Below the pieces are notes generated by a model. It worked only from the letters and a program-made list of their open reading frames with translations. It was not told where the DNA came from and searched no databases. DNA of 64,000 nt from Mobula hypostoma (Eukaryota), in assembly GCF_963921235.1 (NCBI RefSeq), contig NC_086108.1:85128001-85192000 (forward strand), in the 5' to 3' direction. The translations under genes and the position numbers were made by a program. This document shows, one piece after another, positions 4,261 through 55,644 of the stretch (positions are counted from its first letter, which is position 1; every line of letters begins with the position of its first letter).

Positions 4261-4468
4261 GGCCCTGATCAGAGGCGACGCAATTGATTGCAACGGCAAT
4301 CACCTCTGATCTGGACCGACATTTACGTGCCGGGCGGCACCTAGTTAATTAGCTTGTTTATTTCAGCTTTTTTCTTAAAGAAGTGCTGGGTGCATCCTGA
4401 CTACCGCTGCACCACTGCATTCTTCGTGGCAATGTATTGGTCCGCGGCCCGGAGGTTGGGAACCACTG
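4261..4468. mobile_element. Partial fold-back hAT-type MITE inside the hAT 5' region
   Basis: Ends in GGAGGTTGGGAACCACTG (hAT-like TIR); matches 23991-24181. Confidence 0.75.
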
Positions 4469-4501
4469 ATATACTGCACTCGCTTGTGATATCCTGATAG
4501 C

Positions 4502-5461
4502 ATGGTGGAGGTTCCACGAAAGAAGACGAAAACGTACAAATTCCATCCAGAATGGGAAGAAGAATTTCAATTTACCTTGGTGAAAGACAAGTGTGTATGT
4601 ATGTTGTGCCACCAAACACAAGCACTGACTAAAAGAGGGAATCTGGAGCGGCACCACAACACCAACCACCAGAAAGACACCTACCCCCCAAAGAGCGCAA
4701 TTCATGCCAGGGAAGTTGAGGAGCTGAAATCGGGGTTGAAGGCCCAGCAATCGTTTTTCACAAAACATGCTGCTCAAAATAAGGCTGCTATTGAAGCATC
4801 ATTTCGTGTAAGTCACCTTTTGGCTAAACACAAGAAGCCTTTTACAGATGGCGATTTATTCAAGGAAGCAATGGCCATTACCACAGAGACTGTTTTTAAT
4901 GACATTAAAAACAAAAACGGCGTCACAACCGCAACACGTAATGTACTGCTTGGCCCTGCAACAGTGACAAAGAGGGTAGAGTCACTGTCAGAGGACGTGA
5001 ATATTTTTCACTACAGTTCGATGAATCCCTGGATGTAATGCAAACAGCTCAGCTTGTTGTATTTGTCAGAATGGCTTTCCAGGATTTTACAACAAAGGAT
5101 GAATTTCCTCACTCTTTTGCAATTAAAGGAGAGAACGAGAGGTGAGGATATTTACAATGAGTTTAAAAAATATGTCCGTGAAAATGACATCCTCATTCAT
5201 AAACTGGTGGCAATTACTACTGATGGGGCCCCAGCAATGTGCGGTGTACGCATTGGTTTGATAGCACTAAAAGTTAGTGCCTACTTCGGGTCAACTTATC
5301 TATGTGAAATTGCATTTTCACAGATGAAAATTATTAAATCTAAGTACAGGAGCCGTCTTACTGACAGACACCTCATAGACTGTCTCAGACTGGCTGTCTG
5401 TAGTTATGAGCCAAATTTCAGGGAACTAACAGAAAGTATTCAGCCCCAGTCGTCACACTGA
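4502..5461 (+). pseudogene. Disrupted hAT transposase (GTF2IRD2/SPIN/ZBED-like)
   Basis: Zn finger CVCMLC..NLERHH; TTDGAPAM catalytic motif; hATC FGSTYLCEIAFSQMKIIKSKYRSRL; frameshifts and a large internal deletion. Confidence 0.88.
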
Positions 5462-23142: not shown

Positions 23143-24655
23143 CAGGTGTCCCTGCTTTTCGAATGTTCACTTTACGAAATCTCACTGTTACGAAAGACCT
23201 ACATTAGTACCACGTTTTTGCTAACAGAAGGTGTTTTCACTGTTACAAAAAAAGCAGCGCAGGAAAAAAATCAGCATGTGCCCCGAGCAGCCACTCTCCC
23301 CCAGATTCGGAATGGCATTCTCGCCAGCATTGCTTAAACATGTGCCTGTGAGCAGCTGTTTGCAAGATGAGTCCTATGGGATCGGAAAAGCCTGAAAGAG
23401 CTCGTAAGGGTGTTACACTTAGCGTAAAACTAGACATAATGAAGCGTTTTGATCAGGGTGAACGAAGTAAGGACTGAGTGAGTTTGGTTTCTGGAAGCTG
23501 ACAAAGATGATGTCGAAGAGGTTTTGGCATCCCATGACCAAGAACTGATAGATGAAGAGCTGATGCAATTGGGAGAAGAAAGGATAGCAATCAAAACCGA
23601 ATGAGTAATGATAAAGTACGACTTTAATTTTGAAAGGGTATGCCAGTTTAGGGGATACTTGCAGGATGGTTTGAGTGCTTACAAAGAACTGTATGATAGA
23701 GAAATGTGCGAGGCTCAGCAGTCAAGCAAGCCTTCCACATCAGCCACAGCAGACGACGAACCTCGACCTTCGACATCGAGGCGGGCAGAGATAGAAGATG
23801 AACCGCCTGCTCTAATGGAAATAGACGACGAGATGACACCCCAGTGTCCCACCAACCCAACACCCAGGCCACAGACAGATACCGATTCGCAGAGAATGCA
23901 GCAGTAGCCGGGAGGCACACAGCACATCTTTAAGAAAAAAGCCAAAATAAACATGCTAATTAATTAGGTGCCGCCCGACACGTAATTGTCGGCCCAGATC
24001 AGAGGCGATGCAATCAGCAATCGGCACTGATCTGGGTCGATAATTACATGCCGGGCGGCACCTAATTAATTAGCATGTTCATTTCAGCTTTTTTCTTAAA
24101 GATGTGCTGTGTGCCTCCCGGCTACCGCTGCATGCTTCGCGGATCGGTATCGGTTCGCAGCCTGGAGGGTGGGGGCCACTGCACCACCCAAACCTCTGAC
24201 GACTCAGCCTAACACACCATCATCAGTGTGCTCGGCGTTGTCCCGATTCCGGTAAGTGATACTACACTGTACATACATTATTTCTACTTTATATCGGCTG
24301 TGTATTTTTACGTGTTATTTGGTATGATTTGGCAGCTTCATAGCTTAAAGGTTACGGGAGAGCACTTGCGTGAGATTTTCGCTATGGAGAACAGTTCAGG
24401 CAATGATTGTGGAAAAGTATTTCTACTTTATATAAGCCGTGTATTTATCATATCATTCCTGCTTTTACTATATCTTAATGTTGTTTTAGGTTTTATGTGT
24501 TATTTGGCATGATTTGGTAGGTTATTTTTGGGTCTGTGAACGCTCACAAAATTTTCCCATATAAATAAATGGTAATTGCTTCTTCGCTTTACAACATTCC
24601 GGCTTACAAACCGTTTCATAGGAATGCTCTACTTTTGGATAGCGGGGGAAACCTG
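23143..24655 (+). mobile_element. Tigger/pogo DNA transposon, non-autonomous deletion derivative, inserted in a Rex1 3' UTR
   Basis: TA|CAGGTGTCCCTGC...GCGGGGGAAACCTG|TA; 23368 MSPMGSEKPERARKGVTLSVKLDIMKRFDQGE (CENP-B/psq HTH) followed directly by acidic C-terminal DDVEEVLASHDQELIDEELMQL; DDE core absent. Confidence 0.88.
23842..24181. mobile_element. ~340-bp fold-back (palindromic) hAT-type MITE inside Tigger
   Basis: CAGTG...CACTG ends; arms ~23877-24008 and 24020-24151 are near reverse complements. Confidence 0.85.
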
Positions 24656-29485: not shown

Positions 29486-32400
29486 TTGTCCTGGGTATGA
29501 CTCTAAACTGCAACCGGTGATGAGGCTCTGATTGGGGACTTTCAGAGCTTTGGGGGAAAGTGGAGTTACCTCTTAGTCATTCATTGCTCCCAGGGCCGCT
29601 CTGACCCAGAACAGTAGCATCTGCAAGGGTTCCTGCTCAGGATACGAACGAAGGCCAACGTCAGATCCAGCAGGTTCAGTAACTGAACTTATGATGGAGA
29701 AGGCAGACCTCAAATATCGACGGCTATAGTACAGGCTGATGAACATTTGGGAAGAGAAATGGCGATTAACAGTAGGCAATAGCAAACCACCGTTGCTAGA
29801 TGCTAGGTTTCCTAGAATCTATTTGCTAAGAAAACCATGGTCAAACTCACAAAATGTATCACACAACAACAGCGTCAGGAGGATCTTCAAGACAACTCTG
29901 AAGATGCTTCGCTCAGCAGGGTTGATTCTGGTCAGCAGGGGATCACCGACCGTCATCAAGCTACTGCTCATAAAATTAAAGTAACACAAAAGAAAATTAT
30001 TGCCACTTGGAATGTAAGAACCCTATATCAAGCAGGAAGATTGGACAATGTGATAAATGAAATGGAAACACTGAAGATTAACACCATGGGAATTAGTGAA
30101 GTTCATTGGATAGGTACTGGAACATGTCAGAATAGAAATAAAACACTAATTTACTCTTGTGGAACATCCCATACTAATGGAGAAGGAATTCTTATGGATG
30201 AAAACATGGCAAAAAACGTTTTAGGACATTGGGCAATATCAGAAAGAGTGCTCCTTGTTAGATTCAGAGGACAACCATTTGATTTAGCAATTATACAGGT
30301 ATATGCACCAACAACAGATGGAACAAATGAGGATATAGATAAATTCTATGAAGAGCTTGAACAAGCAAAGAATGGATGCAGATCTCAAGATATTGTTATT
30401 GTCATGGGAGATCTAAATGCTAAGGTAGGACAAGGTGCTGATGGAAATATCATAGGAAAATTTGGACTAGGGGAAAGAAATGAAAGAGGTAAGAAATGGG
30501 TAGAATGGTGCAAGATGAATAATCAGGTCATTATGAATACCTACTTTAAAAACCATCCAAGACGCTTGTGGACCTGGAAAAGTCCAGGTGATAACTTTAG
30601 AAATCAAATTGACTTTATGATTATAAACCAAAGATTTAGAAACTCAGTGACTCAATGCAAAACATATCCAGGTGCAGAATGTAATAGTGACCATAACCCA
30701 GTAGTATGTCATGTAAAAGTAAAACCTAAAAAAACTAAAGGAGCAAAAACCTGACCAATCCCTGACTACTTGCAATTAATTAAAGAAGAAAACTTAAGAC
30801 AAAAATGTACAATTGAAGTAAGGAATAGATTTCAAAGTCTAGAAATAGAATCTGTTGAAGATGATAGCATTCATGTAGAAATGAATTTTAACTCTCCAAA
30901 GGATGCCTTGGTCAGCAAAGTCAGTGATTCCTAAAAAAGAAAAAAGCACAAAGAATAAATGGATGACAGATGAAATCAAAAATCTATTGGAAGAAAGGAG
31001 ACAGAAGAAAGCAAATCCTATAGAATATAAAACCTTAGATAAAAAAGTTAAAAGCTTATGTCAAAAAGCCAAAGAAGAATGGTTAAACCAGGAATGTGAG
31101 CAAATAGAAAGAATCCATATTACTGATCCAAAAAGGTTACATCAACAAATCAAGAATATCACTGGTAAAAAGCTCCTCTGTTCTTCAGGGGGATGTTTGA
31201 AAGCAAAGGACGGTACCATTATCATGGAAAAAGATGAGATTATGAACAGATGGACTGAGTATATTCAGGAATTGTTTGAAGACGATTGGAGCGAAAAACC
31301 AGAAATTAAGAAAAATATTGAAGGTCCAAGTATTTTAAACTCTGAAGTTGGTAATGCAATAAATAAGATGAAGAAAGGAAAGGTAGCAGGTCCTGATAAA
31401 TTAGTAACGGAACAAATTATTGCCCATGAAGATTATGGAATTGAAAAACTTACTGATTTAATCAATGACATTTATGAGACTGGAATAATACCAGAAGAGA
31501 TGAAGAATCAGTATTTATCACTCTTCCTAAGAAAGCTGAAGCAATAGAATGTGAATTACATAGGACCATAAGTTTAATGAGTCATATCACCAAGATACTT
31601 CTAAGAATTTTGATGACAAGAGCTAAAAGTAAGATACAAGCTGAAATAGGTAAAGAACAATGTGGTTTTGTGAAAGACAAAGGTACAAGAAATGCAATAT
31701 TGATGTTAAGGATACTATCAGAATGAGCTATTCAAGTGCAAAAAGATTTGTTTGTTTTATCGACTACACAAAAGCATTTGATAAAGTGAAGCACAATAAA
31801 TTATTTGAAATATTACAGGAAACTCTAGATCTAGATTCGAAAGACCTCCGCCTAATCAGAAATCTGTACTGGTACAAACTGTCGCTGTAAGAATAGATGG
31901 AGAAGTGAGTCAGTTTACAAAAATCAAGAGAGGCGTTAGACAAGGGTGTGTTTTCTCCCCTGATTTATTTAATGTGTACTGTGAAACAACATTATAAAAA
32001 ATAACAGACATCTTGGGAATCAAAGTTGGTGAAAACATCAATAATTTCAGATATGCAGATGACACTCTTTTAATTGCAAGTACGGAGGAAGAACTACAAA
32101 ACTTAATTGATATAATTGTTGAAGAAAGTGCAAAAATGGGTTTATCTATCAATTGCAATAAGACATAATGTATGGCGATATTTAAAAAGAAGGAGAATCC
32201 TATCTGCAGGCTGAGAATAAATGGGGAAGACATAAAACAAGTACAGAACTTTTGGTACTTAGGAAGCTGGGTGACATCAGATGGCAGGTGCAACATGGAC
32301 GTCAAAAGAAGAATAGGGATGGCAAAAGACACCTTTACAAGAATGAAGAGTATACTGACCAAAACTAAACTAGGGATGACAACCTGCCTCAGAGTACTGA

Positions 32401-32839
32401 AATGTTACGTTTTTCCAGTTATGTTATATGGCTCAGAATGTTGGACAATATCTAGTAACATGAGGAAACGAACTGTAGCAGCAGAGATGTGGTTTTTGAG
32501 GAGGATGCAAAGAATATCATGGATGAAACAAATATCTAATGTGGATGTCATGAACAGAGCAAGCACAAAAACAGAAATAATGTATGAGATCATGAAAAGG
32601 CAATGTAATTTCATTGGACATGTGATTAAGAAAGAGGAGTTAGAATGCACGATAATTATGGGAAAGATTGAAGGGAAGAAAGCAAGAGGAAGCCAAAGAC
32701 AAATGATGATGGAGACAGCAGCTAGAGAACTGGAAATGAATGCCAATGAATTGATCCACTTGACCCGAAACAGGAGTGTGGGGGCTATGGCAGTCAAAGC
32801 TCAAACTGGGCATGGCACCTGATGATGATAATGAAGACG
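29486..32839 (+). mobile_element. Near full-length RTE-clade LINE (3.35 kb)
   Basis: 11-bp TSD ATCTCTCAAAT at 29475-29485 and 32840-32850; (GAT)n tail; APE endonuclease plus RT. Confidence 0.95.
29837..32822 (+). pseudogene. RTE ORF (APE endonuclease-RT), disrupted
   Basis: IATWNVRTL, VYAPT, MGDLNAKVG, NQIDF, SDHNPV; FIDYTKAFDKV, GVRQGCVFSP, YADD at 32052-32063; several stops and frameshifts. Confidence 0.93.
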
Positions 32840-35534: not shown

Positions 35535-36397
35535 TTCAGAGGTTACAGCAGGACATTGATAGGATGCAAAACTGGGCTGAGAAGTGGCAGATGGAGTTCA
35601 ACCCAGATAAGTGTGAGGTGGTTCATTTTGGTAGGTCAAATATGATGACGGGATATAGTATTAATGGCAAGACTCTTGGCAGCGTGGAGGATCAGAGGGA
35701 TCTTGGGGTCCGAGTCCATAGGACGCTCAAAGCAGCTGCGCAGATTGACTCTGTGGTTAAAAAAGCATACGGTGCATTGGCCTTCATCAGTCGTGGGCTT
35801 GAGTTTAGGAGCCAAGAGGTAATGTTGCAGCTATATAGGATCCTGGTCAGACCCCACTTGGAGTACTGTGCTCAGTTCTGGTTGCCTCACTATAGGAAGG
35901 ATGTGAAAACTATACAAAGGGTGCAGAGGAGATTTACAAGGTTGTTGCCTGGATTGGGGAGCATGCCTTATGAGAATAGGTTGAGTGAACTTGGCCTTTT
36001 TTCCTTGCAGTGACAGAGGATGAGAGGTGACCTGATAGAGGTGTATAAGATGATGAGGGGCATTGATCATGTGGATAGTCAGAAACTTTTTCCCAGGTCT
36101 GAAATGGCTATCACAAGAGGGCACATTTTTAAGGTGCTTGGAAGTAGGTATGGAGGAGATGTCAGGGGTAAGTTTTTTTATGCAGAGAGTGGTGGGTGCG
36201 TAGAATGGGCTACCGGCGACGGTGGTGGAGGCGGATATGATAGGGTTATTTAAAACTCTCCTGGACAGGTACATGGAGCTCAGAAAAATAGAGGGCTATG
36301 GGTAATCATAGGTAATTTCTAAGGTAAGGATATATTCGGCACAGCTTTGTGAGCCAAAGGGCCTGTATTGTGCTGTAGGTTTTCTATGTTTCTATGC
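35535..36397 (+). mobile_element. CR1 3' fragment
   Basis: WAEKWQMEFNPDKC..LVRPHLEYCAQFW; (TTTCTATG)n tail. Confidence 0.92.
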
Positions 36398-36398
36398 T

Positions 36399-38770
36399 AT
36401 ATTTTGTCACTCCAAAACATAAAAACTAATTGAAAGTAAAACAAGGAAGCCTGGAATGTGAATCTAACTTTGTTGTTACTTTAACAAAGGCGCGCAAGTA
36501 TGACATAGTGGTGTGATTATGTATGCTATTTACATACTTTTACATACATCTTGCCGTGTATTATGTAAACAACAAAGAATGCTTAATCAAACGATATATC
36601 TATAATGTTACTCAAATATCACTGAAATATTAAACACACAACTCCTCCCTGCTTACCTATGAACTCCAACTCAATACAGAGCATCCCAGTTTTTATACAT
36701 ATACTATATATACATTCACAGCATAGTAAATTTTAAATCGTCCTATTCAGGCCTAAAGATTTATTCACTGTGGAAGATTTCTTAGTCTTGTAGGATAATA
36801 TCTTTTCTGACAAGGCAGGTCACTCTGCTTGGCTGCTGAGACTTTTGGCTGTGAAAACAATCTCAGGTTCTAGGCCTGCTCTCTGGTGGTTGTAGGAGTT
36901 GACTTTGAGATTGCAGGAAGTGGTTTTGACAGCTCTGGACACCTTTATTCTCCTTTTATCGGTTTTTCTCTTTGGAACTGCTTCGATCTTTGCTTCTCTC
37001 CTAGTCCCAGCTTCTGTCTCTGTTTATCCTACTCTTTTTCTATCTCAAGTTCCTTCTCTCTTTCATGCTTTCTTCTTCTTGCTCATGTTCTTTCTCTCTA
37101 TCTCTCCTCTCCTTTTCAACTTCTCGTCTTTCTTTCTCTTGCTCTTCTTTTCCTCCTTTTTCCTGAGCATCTGTGAATTAGTAATTCTCTCGAGAAATTA
37201 GGCCTTGTTTATGTTCCACTTCCATAGCACTTACAGTATGTAATCCCCTTCTTCCTTTTCCATTTTCTTTCTAGGATATGCATCTTGATTTTGGGAAGGT
37301 GCATTTAGTTCACTGGTAGATTCTCTAATTAATCCTTCTATTGTTCCCTTTACGATCTGATCTCTACTTTTGGTTTCCTCATCCACAAAATCATCTGATA
37401 AATCTTCAATTTTTGTATCTCCATTGACCCCTTTCTTTTTGGCCTTCCATTCATCTAGATGGACTTTGGTCTTTGATCTACTTTTATAAATAGCTTTTTG
37501 CTTCCCATTTGAATATTATGCAATAATCTTAATTTATGCAGAGTACATTGTGGTTCTTTATACTTACAAAAGCCAAATGCTTGCAACTTTCATGAAGCTT
37601 GTTGAACTCTGTTCCAGCTGAAAACCAAACCACAATTCACAAGTAACTGCCTGATTAACATATCAAAAGCTTTCTCAGATATGCTGCATACAAAAACTGT
37701 CAAGTTGGACCTCTGCTTTCGTCACTTTTACAATCCCTCTGAGCAGCATGGTCCTTCCTTGGTCCAATATGCTTTCCAACCAGACCCACAGAGGTTGGCA
37801 ACAACACCTGTGTGCCCTTTGTTCAATGGTTCATGGTATACAGCACGACAACAGTTGTGGCATCATCTTATACCTTTCTTAAATCGCTTTCAGTTGACTC
37901 CATTACAGGGAATGTGGCATGCAAGTGGGGGATGGATCTTAGCCACTCATTTCCACGCACTGTTGGCCCTCCTGTTTTTACCACATGCAAGTCCAATGTG
38001 GCTTGTTGGTTGTTGTATTTCACAGTTACAAATGTCATTCCCACAGGAATTATCTTTTCTCTATTATAAGTTCTTATTTGGATATCTGCAGGCTTCAGTT
38101 CAGTATCTTTGAAATGCCATTCAAATTCATTTTCTGGAATGACTGACACGGCCGAACCAGAGTCCAATTCCATTTTAATAAATTTGCCATTCACTTCTGG
38201 TGTAAACCATATTGCTTGTCTATTGTTAGTTTTCATATTTTAAATCTTAAAGCTATCCAGTCCTGTGTCACTTTCATCATTATTAGAATTTTCCTCAGCA
38301 GCATACAGATTTATGCTCTTTTTCAAACTGCAACTTGACTTTTTATCTTTATCTCTTCCCTCTGCAGTCCATTTATTTCCGTCTGCCTAACATGCTCTTT
38401 GTATGTGTCCTACTTTGTTGTATTGTCTGGTCTGGTGTATGTGAGCCACTGCAATAACAGTAACACAATTTGTTTAGCCAGACATGCTTCAATTTAGATG
38501 TTGCAATTTTGTTCACGCTCTCTTTCATTCCTGACTGCAACTCAGTTGTGTCTGTCTGCTGCTTCCATTGATACAGCTATTTCAACTGCTCTTTCAAATG
38601 TAAGTTGTGCTTCAATTAGGAAGCATTTTTGAATGCTTTCTTGTAAGGTTCCACAAACGAAATGATCTCTCAATGCACCATTAGGCCCATCACTGAACCG
38701 ACAATGCTCCGACAATCTCTTCCATTCAGCCATGTAATGTGAAATGGACCCTTTTTCCTTAGGCACAAGA
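36399..38770 (-). mobile_element. Gypsy element (5'-truncated gag, protease, cargo, 3' UTR, PPT, 3' LTR 36399-36640)
   Basis: gag LSEHCRF..LRDHFVCG; protease MELDSGSAVSVI; PPT GCAGGGAGGAG before LTR start TGTGTG; LTR, gag and 3' UTR match the copy at 49637-54768. Confidence 0.9.
36955..37807 (-). pseudogene. RBM25: Intronless RBM25 retrocopy fragment (RRM and start of the RE/RD-rich region) inside Gypsy
   Basis: Manual translation: VLLPTSVGLVGKHIGPRKDH..GPT/TVFVCSISEKAFDMLIRQLLVNCGLVFSWNRVQQAS*KLQAFGFCKYKEP..KTKVHLDEWKAK..DEETKSRDQIVKGTIEGLIRESTSELNAPSQ..KERREVEKERRDRE, matching vertebrate RBM25 as I recall it; stop and frameshifts present. Confidence 0.92.
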
Positions 38771-47990: not shown

Positions 47991-50900
47991 GGGATGGTTT
48001 TGGGGACAGTGCGGGCAATGCGGGGACAGGTTAGGGTCTAGGGACAGGGATGAGAGGAGTTAGAGGTCAGGGGTAATAAATGAACAGTCAGAGGCAGGAG
48101 CCAGAGTCCAGGTTGGAGCACTCGTGGTAGGAGGCCAGTGATCCTGTGGATGGATGTTGGATCAGTGGGCCTGGTGGACCAGGACCCTCAGGCTGCCTAG
48201 CCTCAGGATCAGAAGTCCATATGGAGAGGAGGGGTGAGGGTTGGAAGTTAATGCAATACCTGGATTTCAAAACACCATGATCGGCGGGACCTGAAGGTCG
48301 AAAACTGAAATCAGCAATATTCCTTTATACCCTTTTGTTTCAACAAGCTTAATCTATTCTTAAATATTGAGAACCTCTCTATTTTTATCATTTAATCTGA
48401 TCAGACATTTCAATTCTTTCAACATATTTATGTTTTCTTATAGCCAGCAGCATTGTAATAAGTAAGCACAGACTCCACAACATTGCATCAATATCAATCC
48501 TTTAATACTATCCACTACTCTTAAACTGTGGGTATATTAGGTTTTATATTGATTCACCAGAAAACCCATAGGTTATTTTATCTTATGTCCTTTGCAATCA
48601 AATCTAGCATGCTATTAGCTTTTCATAGCTATAATCACATGAGGTTGTTAATTACTTTCCTTCCAGTTCATCCCAGCATGTAAGGCTGAAAAGCCTTACT
48701 AAGTGCAAAAAATTACAGTTCTAAAGACTCAATATCTAGAAAAGTTAGCTTCATGTGTGCTGAAAATACTTGCGAATTTTCCCTTGTGCTTCATTCAATT
48801 AACTGATTTCAGGTCCTCTTGAGAAAATATTCTTGTGAAATTATGTGTGTGAGATAGAGTAAAGGTAAGCTGATCTCATCTCTCCCTATGTGCTTCACGT
48901 GAGTTGTACTTTTCATTCTCTCTTATATAACTACTCTGGACAATGAACATTGCAACCACAAATTTTGGTTGACAGCTTGGCCGAAGATTTGTGAAGTGCA
49001 AGCACTGAAAATTTGATTATTGCTGAGCACTAGTTTCTCAAAGTCTCGCTCAAGACACAAGCCTCTTAGTTAAGTATTATAATGAGGGTTGCCTTCATTT
49101 CTGGCTGCTTAAGTGTTTGAACAAAAAAAATGAACCATAAGGCAATTGTATGTTCAATTATGAGGAAGAGTGATGCTGTATTCCCGACATTTGATTAAGA
49201 TATTCATAAGACCATAAAACATAGGAGCAGAATTAGGCCATTTGGCCCATTGAGGCTGTTCCACCATTTCATCATGGCTGATTTATTATCTCTTTCAATT
49301 CCATTCTCCTGCCTTCTCCCCGTAACCTATAGTAATGTTACTAATCAGTAATTTATCAATCAATGCTTTAAATATACCCAATGACTTGGCCTCCACAGCC
49401 ATCTGTGGCAATGAATTCCACAGATTCACCACCCTATAGATAAAGGGATGTCCTTGTATTCTGAGGCTGTGCCCTCTGATCCCAGATTCTCACACTTGAG
49501 GAAATATTCTCTCCATGTCTACTCTACCTAGTCCTTTCAATTAGATTCCAACCCCTCATTCCAACCCCTCAACTCCAATGAGTACAGGCCCAGAGCCATC
49601 AAACACTTCTTCTATGTTAACGTTTCATTCCTGGGATATTATTGAATATTTCAATAATAATTGTGTAATATTGTAAATTTATTGTTGATTAAGCATTCTT
49701 TGTCAATTTACATAATTCATTACGGGCTACATGTAAAAGCCATTATGCCACCACATCATAAGTGCTAAACGTCTTGCTAAACGTCAAAACAAAGTTTACA
49801 TGCATCTCTTGGTCTCCCTTGTTTATCTTCCAATTAGTTTTATGTTTTGGAGTTACAAAACACAATAGTGATGACAGGGAAGTGTGAACTAAACCCAAAA
49901 TGACTACCTACCTATTGAAATGTAGTGAGAGGTTTGGGTTAAGAAAAACAGTGATACTTTCGAGTTAAAAGAAAAGTACAAGCACCTGATTCTTCGAGAA
50001 GAGACAGAGATGTTCAAGTTAAAAAAGTCATAAAATGGACAAATTCACCGGTTCATAAGCGATGAGTACCTGGTGATAATAATCATAAATAAAAAAAGCA
50101 GAAATGGCTGGCTACATCAGAAAGATAGATGTGTTCGATTGCACAAGAGATAATTGGATATTGTATACTGAGTGAATTGAGCATTATTTTAAAGCAAATA
50201 AAATAGCCAATGTAAAATGAGTGCCGGTTTTGCTGAGTGCATTAGACTCCAACCAAACCAGCCAAAACGAGCTTTGCTGATATCATGAAAGTAAAGCAGG
50301 AATATTTAGAATCAAAACCATTGTTGATTGCAGAATTCTTTAGTTTTTATAAGCAGAATCAAAAGCTAGGGAAATCCACTTTAGCGTATATGGCTGAATT
50401 GAAAGATTGAGCATTGTCAGTTCAGTGATGGGCTTAATGATGCACTGAGAGATCAGTTAGTTTGTGGAAGCATCCAAGAAAGCACTCGAAAATGGCTCCT
50501 AACTGAAGCACAAATCGCACTTAAAAGAGCAGTTGAAATCACTGTTACAATGGAAACAGCAGATAGAAACACAATTGAGTTGCAGTCAGGAATGAAAGTG
50601 AGTGTGAACAAAATTGGTATAAAAATAGAAATCTGCTTGGCTAATCAAATTGTGTTACTGTTGTGGCAGGGGCTCACATATACCAGATTAATGCAGGTTA
50701 AAGGTGATAGTTGCAGAAAACGCAACAAAGTAGGACACATACAAAGAGTATGTTAGGCAGACAAAAATTAATAGACTGCACAGAGAAGAGAGGAAGAAAA
50801 GAAGTCAAGTTGCAATTTCAAAAAGAGCATTAATTTGCATGCTGTCGAGGAAAAATCTCAATGATGAAAGTGTCACAGGACATGACAGTGTTGAGACTTA

Positions 50901-51879
50901 AAATGTGAAAACTAACAATAGACAAGCAATGTAGCTTACACTGGAAGTGAACAGCAAATTAATTACAATGGAATTGGACACTGGCTCGGCTGTGTCAGTC
51001 ATTCCACAAAAGGAGTTTGAATGGCATTTCAAAGATATTGAACTGAAGCCTGCAGATATCTAACTAAGAACTTATACTAGAGAAAAAATAACTTCCATGG
51101 GAATGATATTCACGATAGTGAATACAACAACCAACAAGCCACATTGGGCTTGAATGTGGCAAAAACAGGAAAACTAGCATTGTGAGGATGTGTTTGGCTG
51201 AAACAACTAGAACTTGATTTGAGATCCATCCACTATTTGTGTGCCACATCCCCTGCAATAGAGTCAACTGAAAGCAAATTAAGAATGGCACTGGATGATG
51301 TCACAGCAGTGTTCAAGAATGGCATCGGAAGACTTGAACATATCAAATGAAAATGCCACACCCAAGTTTTACAGAGCCTGTCTGGTTCCTCATACCTTAA
51401 AGTAGCCAGTGAGCTAGATTGCATGGAGGCTGAAGGAATTCTTTCCCAGTTTGAGTGGAGCAGATGGGCAATGCCATTGGTCCTGGTAGTCAAGAAGAAT
51501 GGGTCTGCCAAGATCTGTGGTGATTTTAAGGTCACCATCAATCTAGTACAGAAAGGAGATCAATACACTCTACCCAGGATAGTGAATATCTTTGCAAACT
51601 TTCTGGAGGAAAACAGTTCAACAAAGTGGACTTAACTGAGACCTCCCTATAGATGGAGATGGAAGAAGAGTCCAAAGTACTTCTTACCATACACACTCAC
51701 TAAGGGCTTTATTTTTGGAGAAGCATCTGCACCTGCAATGGCAATCTGGAAGAAAACTATGGACAAGGTACCGCAAGGCTGACCAGGCACTTAGTGTAAC
51801 TCGGACAACATCATTGTTACTGGTGAAGGTGACAAGGAACACCTCCAAAATCTTAAGATCTCATTAAAAAAATTATAAG

Positions 51880-52489
51880 TGTAATGCCCCGGTTCATATT
51901 TTTACTGTTATGCTGTATGTATTTCATTTAAGAGCAGTCTGTTCTGTTTTCAACTAGTTTGGGATATTGTCGAAAATAAGAGATGCGGAGAAATGTGTGC
52001 CATCCGATTAGGATGGTTGAATTAAGGGGAGGTTTTTCTGGTGAGGGTCACTAAGGTCAGGCTTGGGGCTTTTGTTCAAGAGGAGATGAAGAGGGAAAGT
52101 GCAGGAGAGAAGAGGTCATAGGATTTGACCTGGAGCGGGACCGTGATTCAACGAAGTCAGGGGCGAGATCAAATGAGGATCGGTTACTATGGAGAAACTT
52201 TGAGCTCTAACTTGTGCGCATTTGACTGTTTCATTAAGATGGGCCCTTTTCTTTTTTGTTTTTCTCTTTACTAATCCTGTAGTCAAATTACGATTCATAA
52301 GTTTAATCTTTTATCGTTAGAGGTGTACTGTCCGTTATTTCGTGGCACTTATTTGTAAAAGGGTAGTAAATTACACAGCATCCACACAAACAGGGGTTTG
52401 GGGTGGGAGAGCGCCTCGATCTTACGAGTCTGGTGGGGCCGGAAGTCGTCTCCCCTAGACCTCCGCAGCTAAGGAAACCAGGGGTTCCA
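51880..52489. mobile_element. Solo LTR (610 bp) of another family inserted in the Gypsy RT
   Basis: TGTAATGCCCC...GGGGTTCCA; 4-bp TSD TAAG at 51876-51879 and 52490-52493. Confidence 0.85.
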
Positions 52490-53051
52490 TAAGGTTATGA
52501 GCACAACACGAGTGTGAATTCTTTAAACCAGACTTATTGTGGTCACACTATTGACACACAAGGATTACACAAGTGTGCTGAGAAAATTCAGGCAGTGGTG
52601 AATTCTCCAAGGCCAAAGGACGTGTCACAGTTCCGGCCCTTTTTAGGATTTGTCAATTACTTTATCAGGTTCCTACCAAACTGGGCTACTGTGCTCCGCC
52701 CCTTGAACTCAGGTCAGAGAAAAATGGCAATGGACAAAGCAGTGTGAGGTTTGTTCAGAAAGGTAGAGGAAATGGTGACGGGAGACACTGTAATTATACA
52801 TTATGATTCACATCATCCCGTGAATCTTGCTTGTAATGCCTCGTCTTATGGTATAGGTGCAGTCACGACACATGTTATGAGTGATGGAAGTGAACGCCCT
52901 ATAGCCTTTGTATTATGTTCTCTTACCACTGCACAGAGAAAAAATAGCTCAGATGCACAGAGAGGCCTTGAATCTGCTTTGGGGTGTAAGACCTTTCAAC
53001 CAGTACTAGTATGGGAGAGAGGACCTTACCCTCATTACTGATCATTAGCTT

Positions 53052-53870
53052 GGATTAGATTAGATTAGATTCAACTTTATTGTCACTGTACCAAATACAG
53101 GTACAAAGCCATTGAAATACAGTTAGCATCTGACCAGAAATGCAAAGAATAGTGTTATTTACAAAATAACTGCGAATAAAAAGTAAGTGCTACAGCACAC
53201 AAATATAAAAGTACTGAGACAGTGCAATGTGGGTGCAATACTGCTTAGCGCTGTGATGTGAGGTTCAGCAGGGTCACAGCCTCAGGGAAGAAGCTCTTCC
53301 TGTGCCTGCTGGTGCAGGAGCAGAGGCTCCTGTAGTGCCTACTGGATGGGAGGAGAGTAAAAAGTCCATGGTTAGGGTGAAATGCATCCCTGATAATGTT
53401 TTTCGCCCTGCCCAGGCAGCGTTTATGGTAGATGTTCTCAATGGTGGGCAATTGGGTGCCGATAATCTGCTGGGCAGTTCTCACCACACGCTGGAGTGCT
53501 TTGCGGTCCGATACGGGACAACTGTCATACCACACTGAGATGCAGTTGGTGAGTATGCTCTCGATGGTACAGTGGTAAAAGTCCATCAGTATCCTGGGAC
53601 AGAGGTGAGCTTTCCTGATGCTCTGCAGGAAATAAAGGCACTGTTGCGCCTTTTTGATCAGGATGGAGGAATTCAGGGACTGGGCGAGATCCTGGGAAAT
53701 GTGGACACCAAGGAATTTGAAGCTTGATATATGCTCCACTACAGGTCTGTTGATGTAGATGGGGATGTGAGTGTGGCTCCTAGCATGCCTGAAGTCCACA
53801 ATGATCTCCTTGGTCTTCTGGGTGTTAGGGCCAGGTTGTTGTCGAAAGCAGTCACACCACGCGACTGCTG
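53052..53870 (-). mobile_element. Rex1/Babar 3' fragment inserted in the Gypsy RNase H
   Basis: Open frame KTKEIIVDFR..FKFLGVHIS..IESILTNCISVWY..SFFPEAVTLLN; (CTAAT)n tail. Confidence 0.92.
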
Positions 53871-55644
53871 TCATCAACTACTGCTGTCCATTGTCAGTTC
53901 ACAGAAGGGTGTTCCACTACAGCAGCAGCACGAGTGCAGAGATGGGCTCTGTTCCTCAGAGGACACAATTACAAGGTTGAATTCAAGAGGACAACTAATA
54001 ATGGAAATTCTGACGGATTGTCCCATTTACTCTTGGAAAAGAAAATAACTGAAAAATATACGCAAGAGGACACTCCTCTTGACGTATTCTCCCTAGTGCA
54101 AATCAACAGTGCACCGACTGTGGCAGAGATGATCCAAAGGGAAACCAGAAAAGGCCTCACATTGTATGCAGAAATTGCTGCAGAAATTCCAGTTCCCCCA
54201 TTTTTGCCAGGACTGGGATGAACTTGCTCTTGATAGGGGTTGCTTTAAGTGGGGATTGAGTGTTGTTGTACCATCTAATCTAAGAGCTAAAGTATTGGGG
54301 GGTGGGGGAGGAGCGACATGCCTGTCATCTGGTTGTGGCCAAAATGAAAGTGTTGATTCGAGGCTCTGTCTGGTGGCCTGGGATAGATCAGCAGATCAAA
54401 CAGCTTGCCGTGCACTGTTTGGGATGCCAACATGTCCAGAAGATATCAGGAGCATCTTGGAGGAAGGAGAAGAAAGATGCCCAGAGCTGTCAGAACTACT
54501 TCCTGCAGTTCCAGAGTCAACTCCTACAACCACCACGGAGGAGGCCCCAGAACCTGAGATTGTTTCATAGCAACAAGTATCACCTGCCAAGCAAAGTGAC
54601 CTCCTTGTCAGGAAAGACGTGATCCAACGAGAGTAAGAAATCCTCCACAGTGATTAAAGTTTTAGACTTGAATGGAACAATTTAAATTTACTATGCCGTG
54701 AATGTCTATATAGTAGATGTATTATATAGTATAGTATACCATTTATTTATTTATTACAAAACATAACAAGGATAATCCTTATGAACCTGCAGTGACTGGA
54801 CTGTCTCCAATACCAACATATCCTTTTCTAGATAAGGGACAAAAAACTGCTCACAAGTCATAGTATTGTACTGATCTCTGTCAGTTTAATTTTGACATAT
54901 GACTGCAAGTAGTATTGTCTAATGTGCAGAGTACAATTTGCACATATACAAATTTTCTCTCTGCTGCGGCAGGTGATGAAAAGGAGTGACTCTGTATTAC
55001 TGCAACAGTGGTAGTCTTAATTAGAAATAACTGAGATTTCACTTAGGCAGCTCTTTTTTACATCCCAGAGGACACCCCAAAGCATTTTACATAAATTACT
55101 TAAAAAATTTGCCTGTAGACAATGTTTTGTTCATGCTGAACTAAACTGGAGGTTAATTGTACTGTTTTTATGCACTACGCATTGTTTTTTTAACCATACA
55201 TTAGTAGCCAAAGCAATTCCACCCATTCAGAGCTTGTTATGAAAATTATGTCTTGGTGCTCCTTGTGTACAATGTGCTTGAGCACAAACATTGTTAGATG
55301 CACAGATGTGAGGCCTGTGAAGGATGAATTCTTAGAAGTACTGCTAGGATTGCAGATTTGGGAGAGAGGCATTTCCATTTTAGGATTTTTAAAAATCTGT
55401 TGTTGTCTTCCTTAGCCTGCAGTCATAAATACAGAATTCACTTATCCTGTCCGACTTCTGCTGGTAGGGCATCACTGTTCTGAAGAGACTACACTATATT
55501 CATTAGCTACTAAGCACAGCCCAAACTTCAGCTTGCAGAACAGCCCGCTGCTCATTTTCAAAATTAACGCATCTCCTTGCTAGCACCTCCTGCAACCTCA
55601 GCTCCAGCTTTCATGCCATAGGAGAGCACTTATGTCTCCCCTGA

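Follow-up and report, generated by a model that had tools for sequence, protein, structure and literature searches.

A large non-autonomous Ty3/Gypsy-like LTR family carrying a spliced fragment of RBM25 mRNA in the genome of Mobula hypostoma

Acutely transforming retroviruses, with their gag-onc fusions, are replication-defective and helper-dependent agents in which host mRNA is fused in frame with viral sequence. In the LTR-mediated retrocopies of animals (Tan et al. 2016, PMC5131818), a partial mRNA takes the place of an internal open reading frame in sense orientation, the hallmarks of L1 are absent, and microsimilarity, with a median of 6 bp, marks the two switch points. The available part of that paper also raises possible secondary retroposition as a non-autonomous element, giving 'more than one insertion site' for two fly retrocopies, and discusses maize Bs1, an LTR element with host exonic fragments from three parent genes, found in 1-5 copies per genome, all with common switch points, for which a functional chimeric gene has been reported. 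CrocERV29 and CrocERV31 captured host mRNA of KIT ligand and nectin3, respectively, replicated afterwards, and are common to related species (Chong et al. 2014, PMC4299795). As described in the sections of PMC4299795 consulted, these endogenous retroviruses exist in 9 and 6 copies, carry the cargo beside or in place of env, and show purifying selection; capture is treated there as a general process, with RSV and v-kit mentioned.

The locus analysed here lies in a stretch of 64,000 nucleotides, referred to as the window, and carries a spliced fragment of RBM25 mRNA in place of pol. It resembles the retrocopies of Tan et al., as far as the available part of that paper describes them, in its spliced fragment, replaced ORF, and microsimilarity, and in the absence of poly(A) and of a target-site duplication (TSD) at the cargo. 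Two recognisable LTRs, the criterion used in that part of the paper, occur in 6 of the 20 RBM25 family copies examined for both ends and not in the window copy. Compared with the fly retrocopies as presented there, the RBM25 family stands out by 913 counted junctions and nested deletion sub-types, while it differs from Bs1, as summarised in the same source, in having one parent, about 2,000 copies, and neutral decay. Like the CrocERVs in the consulted sections, it is a vertebrate LTR element that replicated with captured host mRNA; unlike them, it belongs to Ty3/Gypsy, has its pol replaced, is more numerous by two orders of magnitude, and shows no purifying selection after insertion. In contrast to the transforming retroviruses, the chimera has no env, spread within the genome through the germ line, and gives no sign of a cargo acting on the host cell. 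The mechanism, LTR-mediated retroposition, is already known, and the events described in the available parts of PMC5131818 and PMC4299795 comprise 1-9 copies each. The RBM25 chimera is a member of the LTR-mediated retrocopies, and what is new is its scale as a large non-autonomous family. A search of freely accessible papers found no description of an RBM25 Gypsy family.

On the minus strand, the window copy runs from gag and protease through the cargo into the Gypsy tail, the polypurine tract (PPT), and the 3' LTR (Table 1), the order proposed in an earlier sequence-only reading. Three blocks align with a cargo-free sister copy in the same window: gag/protease (37856-38736 against 51305-50387, 78.6% identity), tail (36955-36695 against 54464-54722, 83.6%), and LTR (36634-36402 against 49642-49860, 68.9%). 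Between the gag/protease and tail blocks sits a segment of ~910 nt unrelated to the sister; the sequence-only reading had correctly recognised an unrelated coding insert, while its estimate of ~850 bp was too short. That reading had also placed the resumption of Gypsy sequence in the 3' UTR, an assignment that must be corrected, as the 3' switch site falls within the pol coding tail, with about 60 codons left before the pol stop. The window copy has no 5' LTR, starts in mid-gag near ~38760, and has no RT, RNase H, or integrase. It matches the Pfam gag-asp_proteas profile weakly (E 0.004, below the cut-off), its cargo frame is interrupted by stops and frameshifts, and its repetitive exon carries a 138-nt deletion. 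An extra T typical of chimeric copies is present in a T run near 36858, and the LTR end is supported by hundreds of contigs in four sequencing runs that diverge from the window at 36394-36396. The window locus is old and non-functional.

Table 1. Positions in the window of the chimeric element, its parts, and the sister copy
Feature	Position	Strand	Basis or remark
3' part of gag and protease, Ty3/Gypsy, decayed	37863..38760	-	alignment with sister; 5' limit from other copies
5' switch point, TGCCACA	37856..37862	-	common to Gypsy pol and RBM25 exon end
Spliced RBM25 mRNA fragment, sense	36944..37862	-	parts of 9 exons; RRM and start of Glu/Arg-rich region
Exon junctions in cargo	37853, 37808, 37638, 37580, 37420, 37246, 37160, 36972	-	alignment with spliced parent
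3' switch point, GAGAAGAAA	36944..36952	-	last captured RBM25 exon equals uncaptured pol tail; one mismatch in window copy
pol C-terminal coding tail, downstream of integrase core	36753..36943	-	comparison with other copies
Polypurine tract	36642..36654	-	directly before LTR in most copies with intact 3' end
3' LTR, about 248 bp, TG...CA in other copies	36395..36641	-	alignments; run contigs
Sister copy without cargo	49634..54733	+	5' LTR, gag, PR, RT/RNase H, integrase zinc finger, tail

The sister copy, which contains two nested insertions and lacks the integrase core and the 3' LTR, matches Pfam RT_RNaseH_2 (1e-12) and Integrase_H2C2 (1e-8) as well as two PDB entries, one of them named Ty3-G Gag-Pol (3e-8). 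Because it combines RT/RNase H and an integrase zinc finger with this Ty3 Gag-Pol match, the backbone is classed from its domain order (PR-RT-RNase H-integrase) and its Ty3-like RT/RNase H as apparently Ty3/Gypsy-like; its gag is one that we take to be Mag-like. The sister had been expected to display what the chimera is missing, which it does for RT/RNase H and the zinc finger but not for the integrase core, lost in the sister too. Its zinc finger is joined directly to the pol tail (window 54440-54466), near the purine-rich site used in the RBM25 chimera, which suggests that this site is a switch or deletion hot spot. The RT region of the sister holds a 610-bp TG...CA insertion (51880-52489) with a 4-bp target duplication, TAAG, and has there what appears to be the solo LTR of a different family, and a LINE-like fragment is nested at 53050-53860, where a minus-strand frame matches Pfam ALKBH8_N (3e-13). 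Elsewhere in the window, 29816-32822 and 4490-5461 hold decayed LINE sequence encoding an endonuclease domain (Pfam 2.5e-9) and a decayed frame that weakly matches the Spin-doc zinc finger (4e-5, below the cut-off), while 23856-24173 forms a near-perfect palindrome with 154-nt arms, 86% complementary, around a 10-nt spacer, with related sequence at 4296-4411.

The cargo frame of the window copy is too decayed for direct search, giving no RRM in Pfam, no PDB match, and no match in the protein search, and the identity of the cargo was taken from a less decayed family copy, L006. The open frame of L006 contains Pfam RRM_1 (7e-7), and its best named protein matches are RBM25 (about 74% identity, E about 1e-52), the other best matches being unnamed RRM proteins in an equal score range. 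The parent gene was located on contig C1 via the C-terminal part of an RBM25-matching protein; the Pfam PWI profile failed to find it and matched two other genes instead, presumably SRRM1-like and PRPF3-like. The exons of the parent have AG/GT borders throughout, and the window cargo shares 773 of 914 aligned positions with the spliced parent (84.6% identity), in agreement with the original assignment to the RRM and charged region of RBM25. All eight exon junctions are crossed exactly and without a gap, the introns of 1,093-6,053 nt (28.1 kb in sum) being absent, so the earlier statement that there are no intron-sized gaps holds at every junction; the first five junctions are also gap-free in 25 of 28 other copies. 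Relative to the protein P0010, the cargo stops in mid-coding sequence, about 430 codons ahead of the stop. A 48-nt in-frame exon (C1:99832586-99832633) is found in the parent, in the cargo copies, and in a shark RBM25 protein (P0124), and is not in the five named bony-vertebrate RBM25 proteins compared, a distribution that points to an elasmobranch host; the family copies are thus a fossil of an old transcript in which this exon is kept.

At the 5' switch point, the 7-nt word TGCCACA occurs both in the Gypsy frame just after protease and where an RBM25 exon ends, is read in one and the same frame in the two, and leaves the cargo in frame with pol. In two full-length copies, RBM25 and the uncaptured element have the 9 nt of GAGAAGAAA in common at the 3' end, and 199 exact uncaptured-type 3' sites occur genome-wide, a count that supplemented the fetched uncaptured loci, 2 of 10 of which reached this site; here RBM25 and pol are read in frames one base apart. 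Shared words of at least 7 nt and at least 9 nt would arise by chance with rough probabilities of 1e-3 and 1e-4, respectively. A 12-nt match in the sister was considered as the true 3' microhomology and rejected, as the full-length copies share 9 nt; the longer match overstates the shared sequence because the sister lost its integrase core. In uncaptured copies about 2.4-3.0 kb separates the two switch sites, bearing out the view that pol was replaced rather than interrupted. The cargo has no poly(A), with a longest A run of 5 near the 3' junction, and no TSD in the 40 nt searched on either side, where the only common word is one 6-mer, rejected as a TSD since it is native Gypsy sequence at both places; both absences had already been reported by the sequence-only reading. 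Given the eight exact junctions, the replaced pol, the microhomology at both ends, and the mid-coding end without poly(A), the proposal of that reading, in which an LTR element took up a spliced mRNA via template switching, is supported.

The junctions are also found in independent sequencing runs. Contigs of a run labelled organism B cross the 3' junction (36917-37306) and the 5' junction (37755-37928) with 5 differences each, match at about 98%, and additionally bridge the 5' truncation into unique flank. The runs of organisms C and E supplied one low-depth contig each, across one junction, at about 94% and 91%, and these are closer to the window than the paralogues are. Deep summed cover over the cargo was seen in all four runs examined, out of 24. 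Since run contigs bridge the junctions, the locus is no assembly artefact, and the family is common to several organism labels.

The principal result beyond the sequence-only reading is that the chimera multiplied: it is a non-autonomous family of about two thousand copies, spread after capture, and the window locus is therefore a descendant of the capture and not the capture event itself. A DNA search with the cargo returned 2,863 first-look candidates, of which 40 were scored and all 40 matched, and a protein search gave 54 more places, 9 in common with the DNA-search list. Among the fetched copies, gag/protease lies upstream in 29 of 29 and the pol tail downstream in 27 of 29. With up to 2 mismatches allowed, a 25-mer spanning the chimeric 5' junction matches 913 times, a count validated on exact-match sites, and its reversed control has no match; the junction matches fall on many contigs and on both strands (468 and 445), and 8 of 8 sampled exact matches run into spliced RBM25. 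As 13 of 30 known copies match this probe, the scaled total is estimated at about 2,100 copies. The uncaptured equivalent of the junction, probed with one degenerate base, has 2064 matches, so that chimeras make up about 31% of the sites counted at this position of the family.

The copies are dispersed and retain the cis signals of an LTR element, namely TG..CA LTRs, PPT, and a putative primer site. The 200 nt beyond the 3' LTR are mutually unrelated in all 24 copies with a clear LTR end. Mean divergence is 12.3% from the parent and 16.3% between copies, and the LTR pairs of the six two-LTR copies are 0.73-0.83 identical, an LTR-LTR divergence as deep as that between copies. A tree of 36 copies, from which L022 (split) and L061 (truncated) were left out, is star-like, with terminal branches summing to 3.41, internal branches to 0.11, and a parent branch of 0.037. 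A test for 5-bp TSDs over five two-LTR copies found 12 of 25 positions matching, above chance (p=0.02) and below the ~80% expected from LTR divergence (p=0.0004). Full-length relatives with the same LTR and integrase-region sequence exist, and none of the chimeras examined has RT or integrase in place. Some copies are rearranged: L027 has two cargo segments in tandem, with Gypsy sequence before each, and in L022 an insertion of about 900 bp splits the cargo. In L010, an uncaptured RT-bearing segment of the same family (L010:186-1425) lies directly upstream of the chimeric junction, possibly marking a recombinant of full-length and chimeric copies.

Since insertion, the copies have decayed neutrally, as is shown for 33 of them. 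Among non-CpG singletons, 96 of 461 are synonymous, against 22-29% expected, and the pooled pN/pS by unweighted counting is 0.73, where neutrality with transition bias gives about 0.71. Four copies picked for stop-free matches have pN/pS of 0.60-0.95, the other 29 ranging over 0.42-1.48. Domestication is not supported, as no intact frame under purifying selection was seen in these four copies or in the window copy. Among 58 protein matches of 124-396 aa, none combines a protease-side part with an RRM part. The majority of copies depart from the parent at 24 sites; 21 of these differences are synonymous, two of the other three are CpG, and at one such position the shark protein has the residue of most copies (Ala, where the parent has Ser). 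Because the majority differences are mostly synonymous or CpG and the shark residue agrees with the copies, they most plausibly reflect later change in the parent itself, and the burst most plausibly followed closely after capture. Recurring net deletions of about 30, 138, 119, 270, and 450 nt in the 3' half of the cargo suggest several copying rounds or repeated slippage in the purine-rich repeat.

The reading preferred here, with a probability of roughly 0.88, is that a non-autonomous Ty3/Gypsy LTR family was born of one RBM25 mRNA capture by template switching and was then copied to ~2,000 sites. RBM25 mRNA would have been packaged together with the element RNA; during minus-strand synthesis, RT would have left the element in the pol tail at the 9-nt purine word, used about 1,070 nt of spliced RBM25 as template across eight exon junctions, and returned to the element at the 7-nt word just after protease, both switches being deduced from junctions that are themselves observed. 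The exchange replaced the RT/RNase H/integrase region and kept LTRs, primer site, PPT, gag, and protease, as the copies display. Because no examined chimera has its own enzymes in place, those of full-length relatives would have driven a burst of copying not long after capture, carrying the chimera to the dispersed sites, and during this burst the purine-rich 3' half of the cargo would have shrunk by nested deletions. Co-packaging and trans-mobilisation are steps that we infer, as neither can be observed in dead copies. The unclean TSD signal weighs against this reading, as does the small share of copies with two recognisable LTRs (6 of the 20 examined for both ends). The cargo most probably rode as a tolerated passenger on an RNA in which every cis signal was kept.

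With the same origin, the cargo may still have been more than a passenger. If the masters encoded a Gag-protease-RBM25(RRM) fusion, or depended on translation reaching the normal pol stop, their spread could have been favoured, an account that we consider unlikely. In a form no more probable, the element benefited from the RRM it had captured, the in-frame fusion helping its own RNA processing or packaging, and a base that restores the pol tail later spread because of this benefit; if true, a selfish element would have co-opted a host splicing-factor domain. The in-frame 5' junction fits such a role, although one junction in three would be in frame by chance. The modal cargo lengths are in frame, with net deletions of 138 and 450 nt, and the frame is kept overall in 14 of 28 copies despite private indels (p=0.05 against 1/3); yet a Glu/Arg repeat with a 6-nt period is prone to in-frame deletions even when selection is absent, and an out-of-frame shared +4/+5 insertion (L001, L005, L026) and the 119-nt deletion also occur. 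The extra tail base restoring the pol frame is present in 15 of 28 chimeras against 3 of 134 uncaptured copies (p=4e-11; 37 copies entered, 29 scored at the site, one dropped for deletion of the site), but it is missing from the other 13 and could reflect a founder effect in one master. In favour of an active cargo, 30 of 92 chimera-type 3' junction matches are 1 nt longer by hand count, and L020 is open from the cargo into the tail, as is L078 over 256 codons; against it, the tree is so star-like that hardly any internal branch is available for measuring selection.

The remaining alternatives concern how the chimera arose or multiplied. A LINE-made RBM25 retrocopy could have inserted into, or recombined at the DNA level with, a Gypsy copy, with deletions removing pol, poly(A), and TSD before the spread. 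LINEs are abundant in the window, and microhomology marks DNA-level deletions too, but this route would demand two separate deletions, each ending at microhomology, and it appears improbable given that the cargo ends in mid-coding sequence without poly(A) and that no intermediate was found among 41 cargo loci examined (29 + 8 + 4); an anchor at the mRNA 3' end, poly(A), and TSD, by which L1/LINE processed pseudogenes are recognised, are all absent from the cargo. A single capture followed by segmental duplication, or by carriage inside another mobile element, in place of LTR retrotransposition is suggested by the weak TSD signal and by the one LTR missing from many copies. This scenario is largely refuted and very improbable, as similarity ends at the LTR end with unrelated flanks throughout, the copies occupy many contigs and both strands, and LTR-LTR divergence equals that between copies. 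An assembly artefact or chance similarity can be set aside almost entirely in view of hundreds of diverged copies with the same junction and of junctions bridged in runs with other organism labels.

A single capture has here come to make up about a third of the parent family at the counted site, leaving a vertebrate genome with some two thousand copies of one host gene fragment. Gene annotation could overcount RBM25 because of them, and reads could be mapped to the wrong place. Their number lets a single event serve to examine both selection on a captured frame during replication and the erosion of the cargo.
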